A stretch of 64,000 nt of DNA, from positions 32,001-96,000 of the forward strand of contig JBMNIW010000001.1 of NCBI GenBank assembly GCA_050951325.1. Reading direction: 5' to 3'. Position 1 is the stretch's first letter. Each line of letters opens with the position of its first letter. The DNA comes from Clostridia bacterium (GTDB taxonomy: Bacteria; Bacillota; Clostridia; UBA1212; DUPL01). The position numbers and the translations under genes were made by a program. Below the pieces are notes generated by a model, which worked only from the letters and a program-made list of their open reading frames with translations, did no database searches and was not told where the DNA came from. Below, one piece after another: positions 29,804 to 37,115 of this stretch.

Positions 29804-30202
29804 TCACATCATATTCATATGATGATGCGTATCCACATGTTGCTGCATATCCATATGTTGCTGCATATCCATACGATGATGCGTATCCATATTAAGTTGC
29901 ATCTGTTCATCCATCTGTCTCTGTAATTCAATCTGATTCTGAATTTGCATGTTTATTTCCTGTTGCTGCATCTGATCCATAAACAATTGCTGCTGCATCT
30001 GAAACTGTCTAAGTTGTTCCTCGTTTTGCATTCGGTTAACCATTTGTTGATGCTGGTCTATGTTGTTGTTATAAAGCGTCTGCTGGTTATTATATGGTTT
30101 GTTTTTATTAACTATATAGACTATTGTAACTATCATACATACTAGAATTATTGCAACCACTACACATACAAGGAAACCGATAACAAGTATCATACTAAAC
30201 AT
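29804..30202 (-). CDS. Single-TM protein with Q/N/M/H-rich low-complexity tail
   Basis: RBS AAGGAG, ATG 30202; long hydrophobic N-terminus, then QQQ/MDMQQH/DTHH repeats. Confidence 0.7.
   Translation of the reverse strand: MFSMILVIGFLVCVVVAIILVCMIVTIVYIVNKNKPYNNQQTLYNNNIDQHQQMVNRMQNEEQLRQFQMQQQLFMDQMQQQEINMQIQNQIELQRQMDEQMQLNMDTHHRMDMQQHMDMQQHVDTHHHMNMM
29821..29890. repeat. Short coding tandem repeats (18-bp period)
   Basis: ATGTTGCTGCATATCCAT twice, flanked by two copies of GATGATGCGTATCCA. Confidence 0.75.
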
Positions 30203-30230: not shown

Positions 30231-30264
30231 ATTATATTACATTTCCGGGACAAAAAATTGCACT
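30231..30264 (-). promoter_or_regulatory. Conserved element copy 1: AGTGCAATTTTTTGTC-CC-N10-TATAAT
   Basis: 16-mer at 30249-30264 is identical to copies 2 and 3; -10 box at 30231-30236. Confidence 0.8.
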
Positions 30265-30410: not shown

Positions 30411-31016
30411 TTAATGGTTATATCGCAGAAAAGATTGTGTTATTAGATAAGATAGATCCGCATTCATCATAAGTACTGACTCTTCTGTAAAATAGAAAGT
30501 CCATACAACGTAATTGTTTGAAGATATAACGCAACCCTCTAAAGCGCCAAAAACACCATCACATATTAGTCCATCCTCATTCGACATTTTTATTTCAACA
30601 TCGTGCAAATTATATACTGTCGTACTTAGTCCGTTGTGAATAAACGCTTCCATATGTATGGCATTACCATCATAATAGACATATTTTGGACTTATAACAA
30701 CCATATTATCGCCTGTATTTGGGACGTTGCTTATGAAGACGTTATTCGGATTAGCAGTTTCGTTTGCAGGCTCTTCAGTCTTTTGAGGCTTATCTGTCTC
30801 TTGTACCCCATCAGTTTTTGCAGGCTTCTCTGTCTCTTGTATCCCATCAGTTTTTGTCGGATCTTCAGTTGATTCGTCAATCCCAGGATTTTTGTTTTCC
30901 GAATCCGTAACACTAGGTGTCTGCTCATGATATTCTAGAATATCATTTTCTGTGCGAGCACATCCTACAGTTAAAACTGTTATTAATACTGTTATAAGAA
31001 TAAAAACTTTTTTCAT
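30411..31016 (-). CDS. Lipoprotein with SLAP-like C-terminal domain homologous to the kinase ectodomain
   Basis: RBS GGAGG, MKKVFIL..., lipobox TVGC; T/E/K/P linker with a 12-aa repeat; domain 'VVISPKYVYYDGNAIHMEAFIHNG'. Confidence 0.75.
   Translation of the reverse strand: MKKVFILITVLITVLTVGCARTENDILEYHEQTPSVTDSENKNPGIDESTEDPTKTDGIQETEKPAKTDGVQETDKPQKTEEPANETANPNNVFISNVPNTGDNMVVISPKYVYYDGNAIHMEAFIHNGLSTTVYNLHDVEIKMSNEDGLICDGVFGALEGCVISSNNYVVWTFYFTEESVLMMNADLSYLITQSFLRYNH
30786..30856. repeat. 36-bp tandem duplication in the lipoprotein linker
   Basis: Encodes KTDGIQETEKPA / KTDGVQETDKPQ. Confidence 0.75.
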
Positions 31017-31054
31017 AAGATTACCTCCCGAAGTTAATGGTCTTTGTTGTGTAT

Positions 31055-31088
31055 ATAATAACAAAGTAGTAAGACAAAAAATTGCACT
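31055..31088 (-). promoter_or_regulatory. Conserved element copy 2: AGTGCAATTTTTTGTC-TT-N10-TATTAT
   Basis: 16-mer at 31073-31088; -10 box at 31055-31060. Confidence 0.8.
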
Positions 31089-31160: not shown

Positions 31161-31751
31161 TTACTTGAACTTAACACTAATCCTTTCATTGTTATAATGC
31201 AAATCAAAAATATAGAGTGTTGAAATATGAAAAGTTAGACTATCAGCTTCTTTGTAACCATTAAAATAATACTCAAACTCACGTCTTTCACCGGATGCAA
31301 TGTCACCATCCAAAAAGTCATTCATATGTATGATTAAGTCTAATGGATACTTTTTCCCGGTACCATCCAAAACATATGCATCCATAGGGCTAAACTGTAT
31401 GTTTTGAGTTTTATGTTTGTTCTCCATTATACCTTTTACAACCAAAAAACTTCCATCTATCTTGTATCCGGTTATTGTAATCACTAGATTACCACCTACT
31501 GCTGTACCTTCAGCATTGGTATCGTTAAAACCATCTCCCGCCGGTGTTTCTTGCGGATGTTTTCCTGGAGTATTTGTTTTTTCCGCTGGATTGTTTGTAG
31601 TCTGTTCAACAGGTTCATTCGTAGCTTTTCCACCAGGTTCCGACGTTTCTGATATTAGCTCACCAACTGTAGTATCGTTGTCGTCCCAATCCTTGCAACC
31701 TACCATGAATACGATTGCTAGAAATATAATTACAAGCAGTGTTTTCTTCAT
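31161..31751 (-). CDS. Lipoprotein with Ig-like (DUF4352-like) domain
   Basis: RBS GGAGG, MKKTLL..., lipobox MVGC; linker; 'LVVKG.MEN', 'LDGTGKKY', 'GDIASGE.RE...YF'. Confidence 0.72.
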   Translation of the reverse strand: MKKTLLVIIFLAIVFMVGCKDWDDNDTTVGELISETSEPGGKATNEPVEQTTNNPAEKTNTPGKHPQETPAGDGFNDTNAEGTAVGGNLVITITGYKIDGSFLVVKGIMENKHKTQNIQFSPMDAYVLDGTGKKYPLDLIIHMNDFLDGDIASGERREFEYYFNGYKEADSLTFHISTLYIFDLHYNNERISVKFK

Positions 31752-31794: not shown

Positions 31795-31828
31795 ATGATA
31801 TCAAGTATGAAGGACAAAAAATTGCACT
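31795..31828 (-). promoter_or_regulatory. Conserved element copy 3: AGTGCAATTTTTTGTC-CT-N10-TATCAT
   Basis: 16-mer at 31813-31828, 4 bp after the kinase stop; -10 box at 31795-31800. Confidence 0.8.
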
Positions 31829-31832
31829 ATTT

Positions 31833-33581
31833 TCAATTTACTATCCGTTTGCATGTAGCCTTCCATTTAATATGCGTCAAGTCCACATCTGTCTTTTTTA
31901 CATACTTGCCTTCAAACACCAATGTATAAATTACTATTTCCTTAGAAGCAATCTTGCTATTCACTACAGTTGAAAATGCCTTCGATGCAATAACATTCTC
32001 GTTCTTGTCAAGAATTGTTATTTTAATATTTTTTACTCCATCTATGTCGATATCATAGCCATTGTAAAAAAACGCAACCATATAAAGCTTTTCGTCTTTA
32101 AAATATATATTCTTAGGTGAAATAATCACTTTGTTATCGGCCTTTAAACTTTCTTCAAAATCAGCCATATAAAACTGCGTATCAGTGTATACTCTGTCCT
32201 TTCTCTTACCGACATTTAATACAAATAATAATGCACTAATAACAACTAAACATAACACTATGCCAACTGTTCTTCTTGTTTTCTTTGACTTATCACGTTC
32301 AGTGCTTTCTACTAAGTTCAACAAATATTTTTTGTGTATTAAATGCAACTCCTGTTTAAGCTCTGTGACACTCATATATCTGGCTTCCGGGTTCGGATGC
32401 ATGGCTTTTTCGATAACATTAATAATATATTCAGGTGTGTTTTTGCAATACTTTCGATTCAAGTTAGCAGGAGGATTAATACCTTCCACTAAAAAATAGA
32501 GCAATGCACCAAGGCTATAGACATCACTCCTCTGATCGCAAACACCTTTGTTTAGCAATTCCGGTGCCGAATACCCAAAGGTTCCTACAGAGGGCATTTC
32601 ACGAATATAGTCTTTTTTATGACTAAGCAATGCAGTACCGAAATCAACCAAATAGAGGCGGTTATCATTGCCCAAAATAACATTGCTTGGTTTGAGATCG
32701 TTAAAGATGACCGGATTTTTCTCGTTATGCAGATATTCAATAATGTTACACAACTCAATACATTTCTTTATTGCATTAGATGCAGCCAATGGCCCTGATT
32801 CTTTTAACAAGTCATTCAGATTTCTACCATCGATATAATCCATAACAAGGTAAACGGTTTGATTGTCGTAGAATACATCATATATTCTCGGAATACCTTC
32901 GTGATTAATAGATAACAAAACCTGCTTTTCGTTCTCAGTATAAATCTTATCTTTCAGTTCATAGTTAATTTCTTTTACAGCAACATATATATCAAGATTG
33001 ATATGATATGCCTTAAACACTCTCCCGCCGCCACCGCTTCCAATCAGTTCATCAAGACGACAATAACCTCCAACAATATCGTTGACTTCTGCCTGTAATT
33101 TCTCAGGCGACGGCTGTATGTCATCCTTGTCCAATATTTTAAGTTCATAAAGAACTTTTCCAATAACCAAAAAAATCTCAACACACAACTCATAGTTTAC
33201 ACTCTCAGTCATTATCGTTGATGTATTATGAGCACTCAAATTACGTATGATTCTTATCCTATTTAGCCTATTTAGGGTTGTTCTATCAAAGCTGTATCCT
33301 TTTTTACTTAATTCCTCAAAGTTTTTCATAAAATCAGACTCAATATAACGGTCATCTAATATGTCTGATAAAACATAATGTAACAAGCTTAGCAACTCAA
33401 TTACTAAAGTAAAATAATCACTAACCTGTTTCCCGGAATTTAGTCTTTTACAGAGTTCAACCCACTTCTTTTTTACTTCCTGCTTGTTACTGTATTTGTA
33501 GGTCGCTTTATTCTTCATTTCCCTAGATTTTATATAATCGTCCAGTTTCATTATTTTGCTCATCTGACTGCCCCTATTCAT
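31833..33581 (-). CDS. Membrane Hanks-type Ser/Thr kinase with N-terminal HEPN/DUF4145-like domain and C-terminal SLAP-like ectodomain
   Basis: GSGGGGRV, VAVK, FNDLKPSN, DFG, GTFGYSAPE, DVYSLG; N-terminal 'LNRIRIIRNLSAH'; TM 'VGIVLCLVVISALLFVL'. True start may be MSKIM at 33563. Confidence 0.88.
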   Translation of the reverse strand: MNRGSQMSKIMKLDDYIKSREMKNKATYKYSNKQEVKKKWVELCKRLNSGKQVSDYFTLVIELLSLLHYVLSDILDDRYIESDFMKNFEELSKKGYSFDRTTLNRLNRIRIIRNLSAHNTSTIMTESVNYELCVEIFLVIGKVLYELKILDKDDIQPSPEKLQAEVNDIVGGYCRLDELIGSGGGGRVFKAYHINLDIYVAVKEINYELKDKIYTENEKQVLLSINHEGIPRIYDVFYDNQTVYLVMDYIDGRNLNDLLKESGPLAASNAIKKCIELCNIIEYLHNEKNPVIFNDLKPSNVILGNDNRLYLVDFGTALLSHKKDYIREMPSVGTFGYSAPELLNKGVCDQRSDVYSLGALLYFLVEGINPPANLNRKYCKNTPEYIINVIEKAMHPNPEARYMSVTELKQELHLIHKKYLLNLVESTERDKSKKTRRTVGIVLCLVVISALLFVLNVGKRKDRVYTDTQFYMADFEESLKADNKVIISPKNIYFKDEKLYMVAFFYNGYDIDIDGVKNIKITILDKNENVIASKAFSTVVNSKIASKEIVIYTLVFEGKYVKKTDVDLTHIKWKATCKRIVN

Positions 33582-34502
33582 TTATTCTATATAGTATGAC
33601 AAGCATTGTTCTGCAGACCGTATCATATCGTTTCTTAATTCTTCGGGCTCAAGCACAATTGCAGATGAACCATAACTCCTAAGCCACCTTTTGAAGCTGT
33701 TTATGCCTGCAATTGTATCCTCATATATTATGTAACCCTCATATTCTGTTATCTTCTTGTTTTTCCTGTGGGACAAATCCCTTTTAACCTTATAAATTAC
33801 ATTTGCCTCGTCCAAAAACTTTACTTTTACGTTGAATAGATTACCTTGTTCCATACCCCAGCTATACTCAAGAAGACTCTCGACATGCTCCACTCCAATA
33901 GGCTCGAACCTTTCATTAGTTGCTTTAATCTCTATCATTCTGTCAAGCCTGTACGTTGCAATTCTTCCATTGTGCTGTCCTATGATGTAAACCATGTTAT
34001 CTATTTCATAATATACAATCCTCAACGGTTCTATTAAAAAATCGCTTGTTTTATATCTTGTCTTGTACTTTACCTTTAGCTTCTTCCTATTCTCTATAGC
34101 TAGTGTGATAATCAGGAACTTGTCCTTTTGTTCAGCTAAACCATGTGTAGACTTTATCCTAATACCAAGGATCTCATCATCAAAAAACGCATTTGCAACA
34201 AGACTTTCAAATAGGAACTTCTCCACTGAGTTAATGCACAAATAAACAATATCATCACTGTCCTCTTCATCCTCGCATGCAATATTCCATGTCATATCAC
34301 CCAAATCCATTATTGCGTCTTCATGTTCCTCACTGTAAATATCAAGAAGTCTGAACTCAGGGTTGTATGATATGAGCTCAAGATTGCGCAAGACAACACC
34401 CTCAGGTACCTTCAAGATATTTGCCAGCTGTTTTGTCGTAATTCCCCTGTTATTTGCAATAATAGCTATAAGTTGCAGCATCAGGCTCATGTCTTTCTTC
34501 AT
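33582..34502 (-). CDS. HTH-WYL-WCX transcriptional regulator (PafC-like)
   Basis: N-terminal HTH 'ITTKQLANILKVPEGVVLRNLELI'; WYL core 'AIENRKKLKVKY...IEPLRI.Y....YIIG....IATYRLDRM'; WCX 'WLRSYGSSAIVLEPEELR'. Confidence 0.88.
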   Translation of the reverse strand: MKKDMSLMLQLIAIIANNRGITTKQLANILKVPEGVVLRNLELISYNPEFRLLDIYSEEHEDAIMDLGDMTWNIACEDEEDSDDIVYLCINSVEKFLFESLVANAFFDDEILGIRIKSTHGLAEQKDKFLIITLAIENRKKLKVKYKTRYKTSDFLIEPLRIVYYEIDNMVYIIGQHNGRIATYRLDRMIEIKATNERFEPIGVEHVESLLEYSWGMEQGNLFNVKVKFLDEANVIYKVKRDLSHRKNKKITEYEGYIIYEDTIAGINSFKRWLRSYGSSAIVLEPEELRNDMIRSAEQCLSYYIE

Positions 34503-35675
34503 ATTTGATACCTACCCCGTAACTTTTTAAAATTCTTTCATATGTATTTCGCATTAAGTCTTTCAATTCATTTGGGGAGATGACCCTGCAGGAAGAGCCA
34601 AAGCTCCGCAAAAAACGAGCAAAGTCATGCATCCCATAAATTGTATCTTTATAAATTATTGTCTCCCCGAAAACTGACAAACTACAGCTTTTTCTTAATC
34701 TTTTCAGCCTTGTTAATCTTTCCATAATGTTAAACTTGTTATCAAATTCAACAACAACATCAAACGGGCCGTCGAGCGATGCTCCAAACATTAACTCTAA
34801 TTTTTGCATCACATTGTCGTCCTTGTAGCACTCATTTCTTATGTTTGTAGATTTTATTTCAATAATAGAACTAATATCAATAAAGAAGATTTCGTCTTTA
34901 ACCTTACCGATAACATAACTTTTATCGTTATCGTAATGGTAGAACAGAGTAATAACCTGAACGATTACGGATAGTTTTCCTACCTTTGAGTTATATGTTA
35001 TTTCTAAAGACTTTCTTCTATAATCACAGGTTTCAAACTCATCAATATTTCTCAAAAGATGTTTGCTTATACGATATCTTCTACCGATAGAATATATGTC
35101 GTATTCATCCTCATAAGGCATTGTTTGAGTTATTATTTTACTTTTCAGGGAGTGAAGAATGTCGTTGAGCGGAAGATGATGCTTGTACAAGTTTGAGAGT
35201 TCTAAAAAGGCATAAAGATTAACATCATCTGTTTTATACAGAAAATCAGACGTAGCAGACAGACAGCATTTGTTGTTCTCATCAATGTATATCAAATTGT
35301 TTTCAACACATAGTTCTATCGCCCTAATAATGGTCTTTTCACTGAAACATCAGCGTCGCACAGACTTTCTTTAAGCATTTCAACAAGTTCTCTGTGTTCA
35401 AGTCTGCCGTTACACTCACCAACGGTCAACAAAATTTTAATAACTCTCAAATCAGTGTTGCTAAGAAGCATTCCTTTTTCGTAATCGTCTTCAACCAACA
35501 CGTAATTATTGTTTTTTCTCCTTATGTTGTATCCCAGTTTTCTAAGATCCTTTATATAATAGCTTACACTGCGATTGCTAATATCCAACAACATCTTAAT
35601 TTCATCGAAAGTAATCGTATTGTGTGTCAAAAAATGGTGTATCAACTTGTTTATTTTTTGCTCCTTTACGCTCAT
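34450..35675 (-). CDS. HTH-HTH-WYL-WCX transcriptional regulator (PafB-like), split by one frameshift near 35345
   Basis: ORF 35316-35675 has HTH 'TFDEIKMLLDISNRSVSYYIKDL'; the alternative frame continues 'SEKTIIRAIELCVENNLIYID' into ORF 34450-35295, which ends in WCX 'FLRSFGSSCRVISPNELK'. Confidence 0.78.
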
Positions 35676-35729: not shown

Positions 35730-35757
35730 ATTATACACCATAATCCTAGTCAGTCAA
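35730..35757 (-). promoter_or_regulatory. Sigma-A promoter of the WYL-WYL-kinase operon
   Basis: TTGACT-N16-TATAAT on the minus strand. Confidence 0.65.
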
Positions 35758-35870: not shown

Positions 35871-37075
35871 TTATTGAAGCAGCTGCAGTACTGACTGTGG
35901 TGCCTGGTTGGCCTGAGCCAGCATTGCTGTAGCAGCTTGTGCCAGGATGTTGTTCTTGGTGTACTCCATCATTTCGTTAGCCATGTCAACGTCACGAATA
36001 CGGCTTTCAGCCGCAGTAAGATTTTCAGCTGATGTATTCAGGTTGTTGATGGTATGCTCAAGACGGTTCTGGTATAGCACCAAGTTTAGCTCTTTCCTCA
36101 GAAACCTTGTTTATTGCCTTGTCTATGGTGTCAATCGCTGCAGTCTGCGATCAGTGTCTGCTGCTTACAGAAACATAAGCAACATCCAGAGCCTCCGCTG
36201 ACATGTCACCAATGAGAAAGATCTATGCTCTGATCCTTATTGGCACCAATCTGGAATGTCATGCGTACCCATCAGCTGCACGTAACATTATCTGCTTCAC
36301 TCTGTTGTCCTTCACCATTGCCTCGCTTGTAGTAGATAATGATGTATCATCTTTTACCACCGTAACGGTATCTCTTTTGTCGCCAATCGTCAACGTCTTC
36401 TAGATATATCTTCTTCTGTCCAAATCGTCTTTAGTAAAGGATCACCTGAGCCTACATTCTTTCCTACCTATAATTCACATCAAATCGTTAATCTCGATGA
36501 TAGCTCCAACATGTTCACTCAGACTGGTATCCTCGTCATATGTTAATGTACTGAGTAATTTCAAATGTATCACCTAAAGCAAGTGTCACTAACAGTAATT
36601 GAATCTAGCATATTCGGCATTTGTACTCTGTATCGACCTTGATACTTATACACCACGATCACCATTCAACAGTGTCTTCTCGTTAAACTCGGTTTGCTCA
36701 GCAATTCTTGTAAGTTCCTCCTGAAGCTGATCTACTTCATTCTGTAAAGCTGTACGGTCTACTCACTTCATTTGTATCAGTAGCTGCCTGTACTGCTAGC
36801 TCTCTCATTCTTTGAAGAATTGAGTGAGTTTCGTTTAGTGCGCCTTCTGCAGTCTGAATGAGTGAAATTGCGTCCTGTGAGTTCTTGGAAGCCATCTTGA
36901 GACCACGGATTTGAGCTCTCATCTTTTCGGATATGGCGAGACCAGCTGCGTCGTCTCCAGCTCTGTTGATTCTGTAGCCGGAAGAAAGCTTCTCAATTGA
37001 TTTCTGGATGTTGTTGTTGTTAACTCCCAAATACCTTTGGGCATTCATTGCCATTAAGTTGTTGTTAATTCTCAT
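35871..37075 (-). CDS. fliC: Flagellin, interrupted by several single-base indels (assembly error or recent pseudogene)
   Basis: N-terminus MRINNN...[27 protein letters not shown]; shifted frames give [55 protein letters not shown]...[11 protein letters not shown]...QSVLQLLQ. Confidence 0.92.
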
Positions 37076-37080
37076 TATAA

Positions 37081-37115
37081 TTCCTCCTTGAAATTTAATA
37101 TTCGGCATCCTTGCC
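37081..37115 (-). promoter_or_regulatory. CsrA-binding sites in the flagellin leader
   Basis: Hairpin GGCA-AGGA-TGCC (37104-37115) and a second AGGA within the Shine-Dalgarno AAGGAGGA, as in Bacillus hag. Confidence 0.7.

Follow-up and report, generated by a model that had tools for sequence, protein, structure and literature searches.

A predicted HEPN-kinase membrane receptor of a Clostridia bacterium, encoded with a WYL regulator pair, private promoters and partner lipoproteins

Can a bacterial membrane protein couple a cue from outside the cell to the cutting of RNA inside it? The question is raised by a gene in a window of 64,000 nucleotides (nt) from a Clostridia bacterium (GenBank assembly GCA_050951325.1, contig JBMNIW010000001.1, positions 32,001 to 96,000 of the forward strand); the window is the whole stretch that was analysed, and coordinates below refer to it unless another contig is named. 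The product of this gene joins a HEPN-like N-terminal domain (N-domain) to a transmembrane (TM) Ser/Thr kinase. We put at about one half the probability that it is an Ire1-like membrane kinase-RNase, its RNase activity being predicted, which acts together with transcriptional activators of the WYL type. The most telling part of the case is the context, namely the WYL pair, the private promoters and the partner lipoproteins, all of which were absent from the original prediction made from the letters of this DNA. No description of a bacterial HEPN-kinase receptor was found in the open-access papers searched.

The receptor and its N-terminal domain

The receptor gene and its parts are the following.

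31833..33581, minus strand: HEPN-kinase receptor gene, an open reading frame (ORF) of 582 amino acids (aa), with a Pfam Pkinase match, a weak DUF4145 match and a full-length AlphaFold model
33132..33509, minus strand: predicted HEPN domain, a helical bundle, residues ~25-150
33228..33245, minus strand: R113-N114-x3-H118 motif with the basic R110 before it, delimited by conservation and by hhalign to DUF4145
33072..33131, minus strand: linker between HEPN domain and kinase, residues 151-170, LDKDDIxPSxEKLxA, with P157, S158, L162 and A164 conserved
32292..33071, minus strand: Hanks-type Ser/Thr kinase, residues ~171-430 (Pfam PF00069, E 9.8e-43)
32682-32705, minus strand: kinase catalytic loop, FNDLKPSN
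32217..32270, minus strand: TM helix, residues ~438-455, seen in the translation as the hydrophobic stretch TVGIVLCLVVISALLFVL and in the AlphaFold model as a helix
31866..32138, minus strand: SLAP_DUP ("S-type") extracellular domain, residues 482-572 (NCBIfam TIGR04398)

An alternative start at M7 would give a protein of 576 aa, the same as the relative P0001. The original prediction had described a helical N-terminal region of ~150 aa with an R-x4-H motif, a complete Hanks kinase, a TM helix and an ectodomain free of PASTA repeats, in that order, and this architecture was borne out at every point. The AlphaFold model is all-helical over the N-terminal region, where LNRIRIIRNLSAH makes up residues 106-118 and includes R113, N114 and H118 (alignment numbering). 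The Pkinase match covers residues 177-390 with 146.9 bits against a cut-off of 31.7, and the VAVKEI, VDFG and SAPE motifs are all found. In the loop IFNDLKPSN (residues 292-300) an Asn precedes the catalytic Asp, so that the earlier label of a non-RD kinase fits the window protein; it does not hold as a family trait, since the relatives vary at this position (FRD, F/YKD, YND, FQD, FCD, FAD, HAD and FLD). In the full-length model (predicted local distance difference test score, pLDDT, 76.9; predicted template-modelling score, pTM, 0.60), the linker has a pLDDT of 90 or more, a long helix lies at the TM stretch and residues 485-581 form a beta sandwich. The homologues have a hydrophobic stretch at the matching position. 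The C-terminal part beyond the helix comprises ~125 aa, and its identity, missed earlier, is SLAP_DUP (36.9 bits, above the cut-off of 28.5).

PASTA repeats were not found in the receptor, the NCBIfam PASTA-kinase model NF033483 matching its kinase part alone (profile positions 5-288 of 563). The PASTA kinases PrkC, PknB and Stk1 resemble the receptor in having a Hanks kinase, a single TM helix and an extracellular sensor, and theirs is the best NCBIfam match to the kinase part; the receptor differs from them in its want of PASTA repeats, in its extra N-terminal HEPN domain and in its score, 154.6 bits against a cut-off of 450. The source genome encodes two further Hanks kinases, of 744 and 534 aa, and the receptor kinase is therefore an accessory copy; the separate 744-aa kinase outscores it on the Pkinase model.

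HEPN RNases work as dimers with a composite active site and have metal-independent endoribonuclease activity. Whether the N-domain belongs to the HEPN superfamily was addressed by structure and by profile. The AlphaFold model of residues 1-168 (pLDDT 80.9, pTM 0.74) gave nothing at E <= 0.001 with Foldseek alone, where the best coherent rows were HEPN toxins. When the 296 candidate chains from Foldseek were re-ranked, the top 14 were all HEPN proteins, after which Z dropped to 6.3. The N-domain is thus modelled as a HEPN fold, an all-alpha, up-and-down helical bundle, and the earlier assignment stood up to this comparison. The Pfam model DUF4145 (PF13643; cut-off 23.1) gave 18.8 bits with the whole window protein, 21.6 with the domain alone and 22.2 in a six-frame search. 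Eight of nine family N-domains, scanned singly, matched DUF4145 at E <= 1 (best E 4.7e-07), and the relative P0041 carries a precomputed PF13643 match. Single family members also matched HEPN_RiboL-PSP (5e-05), HEPN_MAE_28990, Csm6 HEPN, Swt1 HEPN and HEPN. An alignment of 12 true DUF4145 domains was made from genomes belonging to the same class, and hhalign matched it with E 0.0012 at a probability of 19.7%; [KR]110, N114 and H118 coincided with the R, N and H around the DUF4145 GN..AH motif, and R113 with its G. Sequence searches of the PDB found nothing better than E 0.29 with one sequence and, with the profile, a Cas10 at E 0.3. The ESM Atlas scores, 0.81 or less, serve as leads only.

The family was collected with an exhaustive phmmer search of residues 1-168 against 1.84 billion representatives, in which 13 proteins in all were found at E <= 0.001; the real relatives among these all had the N-domain, kinase, TM helix and ectodomain. 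Searching with the kinase domain added further members, some of them from named Clostridium-group isolates. In an alignment of 16 sequences the invariant N-domain residues were Y30, V36, K39, W40, R113, N114, L144 and L162, with H118 present in 15, and the kinase residues K203, E218, D295, K297, N300, D313-F-G, P340-E, D353 and R401 were likewise invariant. A wider set of 24 distinct family sequences with intact kinase motifs had RN in all 24 and H118 in 23. The exception, P0003, is known from one contig, and its cluster mate, on four contigs, has the His. The proposal that the Arg and His would be conserved in homologues has therefore survived. Taken singly, an RNxxxH string could occur by chance; here it stands above chance level because it is conserved to this degree and sits in a HEPN fold. 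Mean pairwise identity was highest in the kinase (0.45), followed by the linker (0.39), the HEPN domain (0.38) and the ectodomain (0.27), so that the HEPN domain is almost as conserved as the kinase domain.

Two relatives are degenerate.

G646, L114 9936-11360: no RNxxxH motif; kinase loop DLNPDN; no ectodomain
G815, L115 10000-11769: no RNxxxH motif, no Gly loop and no VAIK; QYG in place of DFG

The G815 protein is pseudokinase-like and retains a TM helix and a D-type ectodomain, the second of two ectodomain types that are described below. Neither gene has WYL neighbours. The joint decay of the HEPN and kinase motifs, in two events, is what would be expected if both activities cooperate, and it suggests that they do.

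WYL regulators, private promoters and lipoproteins

Two tandem regulator genes with helix-turn-helix (HTH), WYL and WCX domains lie directly upstream of the receptor gene, one of them in two pieces.

33582..34502, minus strand: WYL-B, HTH-WYL-WCX, 306 aa (Pfam WYL 8.5e-09, WCX 4.7e-10)
34450..35295, minus strand: WYL-A, C-terminal piece, WYL-WCX, 281 aa (Pfam WCX; PADLOC WYL 1.7e-14)
35316..35675, minus strand: WYL-A, N-terminal piece, HTH_11, 119 aa (Pfam HTH_11)
35730..35757, minus strand: sigma-70-like promoter predicted for the WYL-A/WYL-B/kinase operon, TTGACT-16-TATAAT, the best minus-strand site (11/12 matches)

The stop codon of WYL-B abuts the start codon of the receptor. WYL-A is one gene of 390-453 aa in the relatives, and the 119-aa and 281-aa pieces align to residues 58-167 and 186-451, respectively, of an intact WYL-A of 453 aa. 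The same split is found in an independent metagenome contig, L005, that is 99.6% identical. WYL-A and WYL-B share 30% identity over 175 aa (E 5.6e-15).

To follow these genes beyond the window, 385 genomes of the family of G430 (a Clostridium record) were searched with the N-domain; there were eight matches, six of them strong, and seven loci were fetched. The WYL pair stands immediately upstream of the kinase in five of six loci (the window, G466, G513, G528 and G566), and in the latter four WYL-A has 390-409 aa (HTH...WCX) and WYL-B 298-320 aa (WYL-WCX). In the sixth, G676, the pair is found 460 kb from the kinase, behind the private promoter motif. Orthologues of WYL-A (E <= 1e-15) occur in 5 of 383 G430-family genomes, all five of which have a strong HEPN-kinase match on a long contig; in the sixth genome with a strong match, G524, the kinase contig was read over 3.4 kb only. 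An extended -10 promoter, AAATTTGATATAAT, is found ahead of WYL-A in G528 and G566 and ahead of the kinase in G676, and it looks like a constitutive promoter common to the core genes.

Downstream of the receptor are three genes, each with its own copy of an element that we call the private promoter.

31795..31827, minus strand: private promoter 1, GTGCAATTTTTTGTC-N12-TATCAT, upstream of the D-type lipoprotein gene
31161..31751, minus strand: D-type lipoprotein (DUF4352-like), an ORF with probable start MKKTLL... and lipobox MVGC
31055..31087, minus strand: private promoter 2, GTGCAATTTTTTGTC-N12-TATTAT, upstream of the S-type lipoprotein gene
30411..31016, minus strand: S-type lipoprotein (SLAP_DUP, NCBIfam, 37.9 bits), probable start MKKVFIL..., lipobox TVGC
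30231..30263, minus strand: private promoter 3, GTGCAATTTTTTGTC-N12-TATAAT, upstream of the small TM, glutamine-rich (Q-rich) gene
29804..30202, minus strand: small membrane protein with a Q/M/H/D-rich tail, an ORF with probable start MFSMILV...

The 16-mer AGTGCAATTTTTTGTC has three copies in the 3.08-Mb genome at up to two mismatches, all of them ~70 nt 5' of the probable starts of these three genes. The same element precedes accessory genes in G466, G513, G528, G566 and G676, and gives the consensus GTGMAA-W6-GTC-N12-TAWNAT. Genome-wide there are three sites in the window genome, one each in G466, G513, G528 and G566, and two in G676, while a reversed-pattern control in the same six genomes gave none. 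Eight of the nine sites lie within HEPN-kinase loci, and the remaining one, in G676, stands ahead of the unlinked WYL operon, where a small Q-rich membrane protein and a lipoprotein are encoded together with WYL-A and WYL-B; both the kinase locus and the WYL locus of this genome carry the motif, which therefore ties the two together in trans. At all nine sites the GTC lies exactly 12 nt before the -10 box, and there is no -35 box. A sigma-70 scan called none of the three window sites. Plain sigma-70, extracytoplasmic function (ECF) sigma and sigma-28 readings of the 16-mer were rejected on spacing, the first also by the scan.

The closest parallel for such an arrangement is the mycobacterial PafBC, a heterodimer of tandem WYL paralogues in which a -26 element takes the place of -35 recognition (PMC8635444, PMC6789036). 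The present locus likewise has two tandem paralogous HTH-WYL-WCX genes and a non-palindromic element with GTC 12 nt 5' of a TAnnnT -10 box and no -35 box, to be compared with the PafBC consensus tGTCgg(N10)tA(N3)T, whose -26 element replaces the -35 box (PMC8635444). A PafBC-type heterodimer is activated by single-stranded nucleic acid (PMC11804915). The differences are that the host here is a Firmicute and not an actinobacterium, that WYL-A is ~100 aa longer than WYL-B, that an additional GTGMAA-W6 stands upstream of the GTC, and that there are one to three sites per genome, against ~150 genes for PafBC (PMC8635444). A comparison of WYL-B with solved PafBC gave no sequence match at E < 0.01. 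By analogy, we infer that the WYL pair binds the private promoter element.

The lipoproteins are linked to the receptor by their domains. The C-terminal domain of the window's D-type lipoprotein is 25-39% identical to the ectodomains of relatives' kinases (E 1.6e-23 to 1.4e-09), and the homologous neighbour in G676 matches Pfam DUF4352 (28.3 bits, cut-off 25.9). The S-type lipoprotein is 26% identical over 91 aa to the ectodomain of the window kinase (E 9e-12) and homologous to the locus lipoproteins of G466, G513, G528 and G566 (E 1e-24 to 3e-30); the S lipoproteins of the relatives match the window ectodomain at E 2.3e-18 to 4.6e-08. In the window the kinase is of S type and the locus lipoproteins are one D and one S. 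The G430-family genomes have a D-type kinase ectodomain, and their loci encode an S-type lipoprotein; the neighbour in G676 is a D-type membrane protein. Judged by sequence, a lipoprotein of the system appears to carry the ectodomain type, S or D, both of them Ig-like, that the receptor itself has not. Both types occur together in five of six loci, whichever is fused to the kinase, with only D seen in G676, and this co-occurrence suggests that the S and D domains cooperate outside the cell. Different ectodomains are found in further relatives (P0004, P0012, P0013, P0038 and L023).

Small Q/M/D-rich proteins are also found in the loci of G466, G513, G528, G566 and G676. They are Q/M/D/F-rich and not His-rich, and their BLAST similarity is among themselves only, not to the window protein. 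The tail of the latter, MDMQQHMDMQQHVDTHHHMNMM, is Met/His/Gln-rich and recalls metal-binding Met/His motifs. Taken together, the receptor, WYL-A, WYL-B, a lipoprotein and a small Q-rich protein are predicted to be a conserved five-part system.

Proposed mechanism and alternatives

These parts can be assembled into a working model. A predicted DUF4145-like HEPN endoribonuclease domain would be joined through a conserved rigid linker to a predicted active Hanks kinase, with an Ig-like sensor domain as the putative outer part of the receptor. A cue from the envelope or from outside the cell would be read by the paired S and D domains and would cluster the receptor; the kinase domains would become active and pair two HEPN domains, so that a composite R-N-x3-H site could form and RNA be cut. 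The WYL pair would then be switched on, either by a nucleic-acid cleavage product or by phosphorylation, and would drive the private promoters. The RNase activity, the dimerisation, the identity of the motif-binding protein and the direction of signalling are all what we infer. The route from receptor to WYL pair may run through RNA fragments or phosphorylation, or the order may be the reverse, such that damage is sensed by the WYL pair and the receptor is a suicide effector. One specific version, in which single-stranded RNA products cut by the HEPN domain are the ligand of WYL-A/WYL-B and turn on the GTC-N12 promoters by sigma adaptation, is a tentative proposal that we regard as improbable.

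Ire1 has its sensor beyond a single TM helix and two enzymatic domains on the cytoplasmic side, and its output feeds a transcription factor. The receptor resembles Ire1 and RNase L in combining a protein kinase and an RNase domain of the HEPN superfamily in one polypeptide, the KEN domain being classed as HEPN (PMC3710099). Here the HEPN domain lies N-terminal to the kinase, attached to the N-lobe via the conserved linker; it is DUF4145-like, with no match to the KEN Pfam model; and the host is bacterial, with WYL regulators as partners and no sign of a common descent of the fusion. The analogy of the original prediction, with the domain order reversed, thus holds as logic but not as membership, the HEPN domain being N-terminal and not KEN. 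In the excerpt of PMC3710099, kinase-HEPN fusions are listed for eukaryotic KEN only, and no kinase appears among the DUF4145 fusions. The closest sequence family of the N-domain is that of RAZR and other HEPN RNases of DUF4145 type; the DUF4145 domain of RAZR is an RNase with a conserved R and H needed for defence, activated by higher-order assembly (PMC13017515). RAZR differs in being soluble, in its N-terminal zinc finger and in the R-x7-H spacing of its motif (R146, H154), whereas the receptor is membrane-bound and kinase-fused, with the motif [KR]-x2-R-N-x3-H and R113 in place of the DUF4145 G.

Several points weigh against reading the receptor as a kinase-RNase that acts with the WYL pair. 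The RNase, kinase and DNA-binding functions are predictions from sequence and models, and both the binding of the motif by the WYL pair and the place of the receptor upstream of the pair are presumed. The window protein's own DUF4145 scores all fall under the Pfam cut-off, the hhalign probability is no higher than 19.7%, and Foldseek alone was without a match at E <= 0.001. Some HEPN domains are non-catalytic binders of RNA or ligands (PMC3710099). The genomes compared are related, so that the co-occurrence counts amount to about three or four independent lineages. In the window itself WYL-A is split into two ORFs, and the system may be impaired here. Finally, the evidence for RNA, given below, consists of contigs only, for which DNA carry-over is possible.

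Another potential explanation is that the locus serves anti-phage abortive infection. The WYL pair would sense infection or DNA damage, in the manner of other WYL regulators, and would control the locus, and the HEPN-kinase would be a suicide effector that degrades RNA and phosphorylates host or phage proteins, with the ectodomain and lipoproteins as a surface sensor of phage attack or an exclusion factor. We consider this unlikely as a whole, while giving it real weight. Most HEPN domains, those of DUF4145 among them, are toxins used in defence (PMC3710099), of which RAZR is an example; the neighbours are matched by PADLOC models for WYL proteins that derive from CRISPR-associated regulators, and the best PADLOC matches of the kinase are mad6 and PD-T4-6 (E 2e-50 and 2e-48). 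The defence kinases PD-T4-6, Mad6 of MADS and PglW of BREX, with matches from E 2e-50 to 1e-23, share with the receptor an accessory, patchy occurrence. However, these matches cover the generic kinase domain only (residues 161-442, with none over the HEPN domain, TM helix or ectodomain), the PknB model does about as well (154.6 bits), and none of the partner genes of the PD-T4-6, Mad6 or PglW systems is in the locus. The sporadic distribution of the N-domain (8/385, 2/398 and 1/60 genomes), the low GC content of the locus and its site in a variable stretch between flagellin and fliD genes, and the frameshifted variants in populations are all as a defence system would have them; so is the motif heading the whole operon in G528 and G566, where it is the predicted driver. 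Yet no recognised defence gene stood beside any locus examined, and no relative was found in viral contigs, with narrow patterns, or in plasmids, with tblastn. Moreover, lipoproteins that are outputs and have domains in common with the receptor fit a feedback loop in signalling better than an arsenal of effectors.

A doubtful alternative concerns the enzyme and not the system: the HEPN domain could be a non-catalytic module, for dimerisation or for nucleotide or RNA binding, that controls the kinase, with the kinase phosphorylating WYL-A/WYL-B or other proteins and no RNA being cut. It is very improbable, by comparison, that the protein is an ordinary envelope Ser/Thr kinase with a chance likeness to HEPN and unrelated neighbours. 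Chance likeness sits badly with an invariant motif, with profile matches in 8/9 members and with two structure searches whose top ranks were all HEPN, and the neighbours are conserved, co-occur across genomes and share a promoter motif that has no further site in them.

If the kinase-RNase reading is correct, a bacterial membrane receptor couples an outside cue to RNA cleavage, with a compact and genetically separable set of partners: two WYL regulators, one to three private promoters and a co-receptor lipoprotein. PafBC-type promoters would then extend beyond Actinobacteria, and there would be a concrete candidate for the source of a WYL-domain ligand. Should RNA fragments prove to be that ligand, the Ire1 principle, a receptor signalling to transcription via RNA cleavage, would have been invented independently, and this would be the first natural source of a WYL ligand made by a dedicated partner enzyme. 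Under the abortive-infection alternative, the locus would be a new membrane-anchored system with two effector activities.

Genomic setting and wider relatives

The distribution given above, which refers to three genome groups, makes the N-domain family a sporadic one. In the window the locus lies within a flagellar region (22050-43882), with FlgN, FlgK, an FlgL-like protein, DUF6470, FliW and flagellin on one side and FliD on the other. Its GC content is 0.35, against ~0.40 around it, which suggests that the locus is an insertion in a variable flagellin-fliD stretch. The flagellin gene (35871-37108, minus strand) is broken into several frames; it is intact over 123 aa at the N-terminus and 70 aa at the C-terminus, and shifted in between. 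Compared with contig L005 this region has seven single-base indels, all at ~36.0-36.3 kb; the breakage is either a real pseudogene or due to indel errors in one of the two assemblies. No Rfam family was found at 28-38 kb of the window.

Contigs from RNA libraries hint that the locus is expressed. In three studies (anaerobic digester, bioreactor sludge, metagenome), 10 of 11 records were at least 99% identical to parts of the locus. One contig of 614 nt corresponds to 30417-31030 and thus to the S-lipoprotein gene alone; others fall on the WYL genes and on the stretch that encodes the HEPN domain, with most of the kinase gene uncovered. Transcript ends cannot be read from such contigs, and carried-over DNA is a possible source of them.

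Other loci have features of their own. In G566, an IS605-type element (L113 5420-7220) lies between the S-lipoprotein and small TM genes, with a resolvase-like gene and an OrfB/TnpB gene that has a Cas12f1-like TNB domain. Just upstream of the G676 kinase (L111 10571-12102) are two tandem secreted proteins that are 89% identical, as well as a pair of a HAMP histidine kinase and an OmpR-type response regulator. P0021+P0022 and P0030+P0031 are split or frameshifted receptors, each within a single metagenome contig; the break falls in the kinase in one of them and in the HEPN domain in the other. They are population pseudogenes or assembly errors.

Searches for relatives by other means added little. 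A word-indexed search with the N-domain had its own cluster as the sole match (1 of 281 candidates), and tblastn of plasmids found no relative. Patterns made from four sequences found no relative in genome contigs and viral contigs and only an identical contig in metagenome contigs; these patterns were too narrow for the relatives found later. A full-length alignment search gave 598 relatives, mostly generic kinases, of which 77 loci were kept, with the N-domain in L023 only. This locus (L023 2328-10734, from G431, a Coprococcus metagenome-assembled genome record) encodes a family member of 712 aa with a longer, different ectodomain; a Tad/Flp-pilus-like cluster (T2SSE ATPase, T2SSF and small TM proteins) follows the receptor, and the contig ends upstream. 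The CapK/CapS pair, described in PMC13373217, was rejected as a relative, being an unrelated kinase pair of anti-sigma type. P0048 and P0049, which belong to the nearer relatives of the kinase, were considered as an effector swap within the family and rejected, at 34-35% identity and with a different build: they are soluble proteins of two tandem Hanks kinases and a C-terminal TIR domain, that is, a kinase fused to a conflict-type effector.

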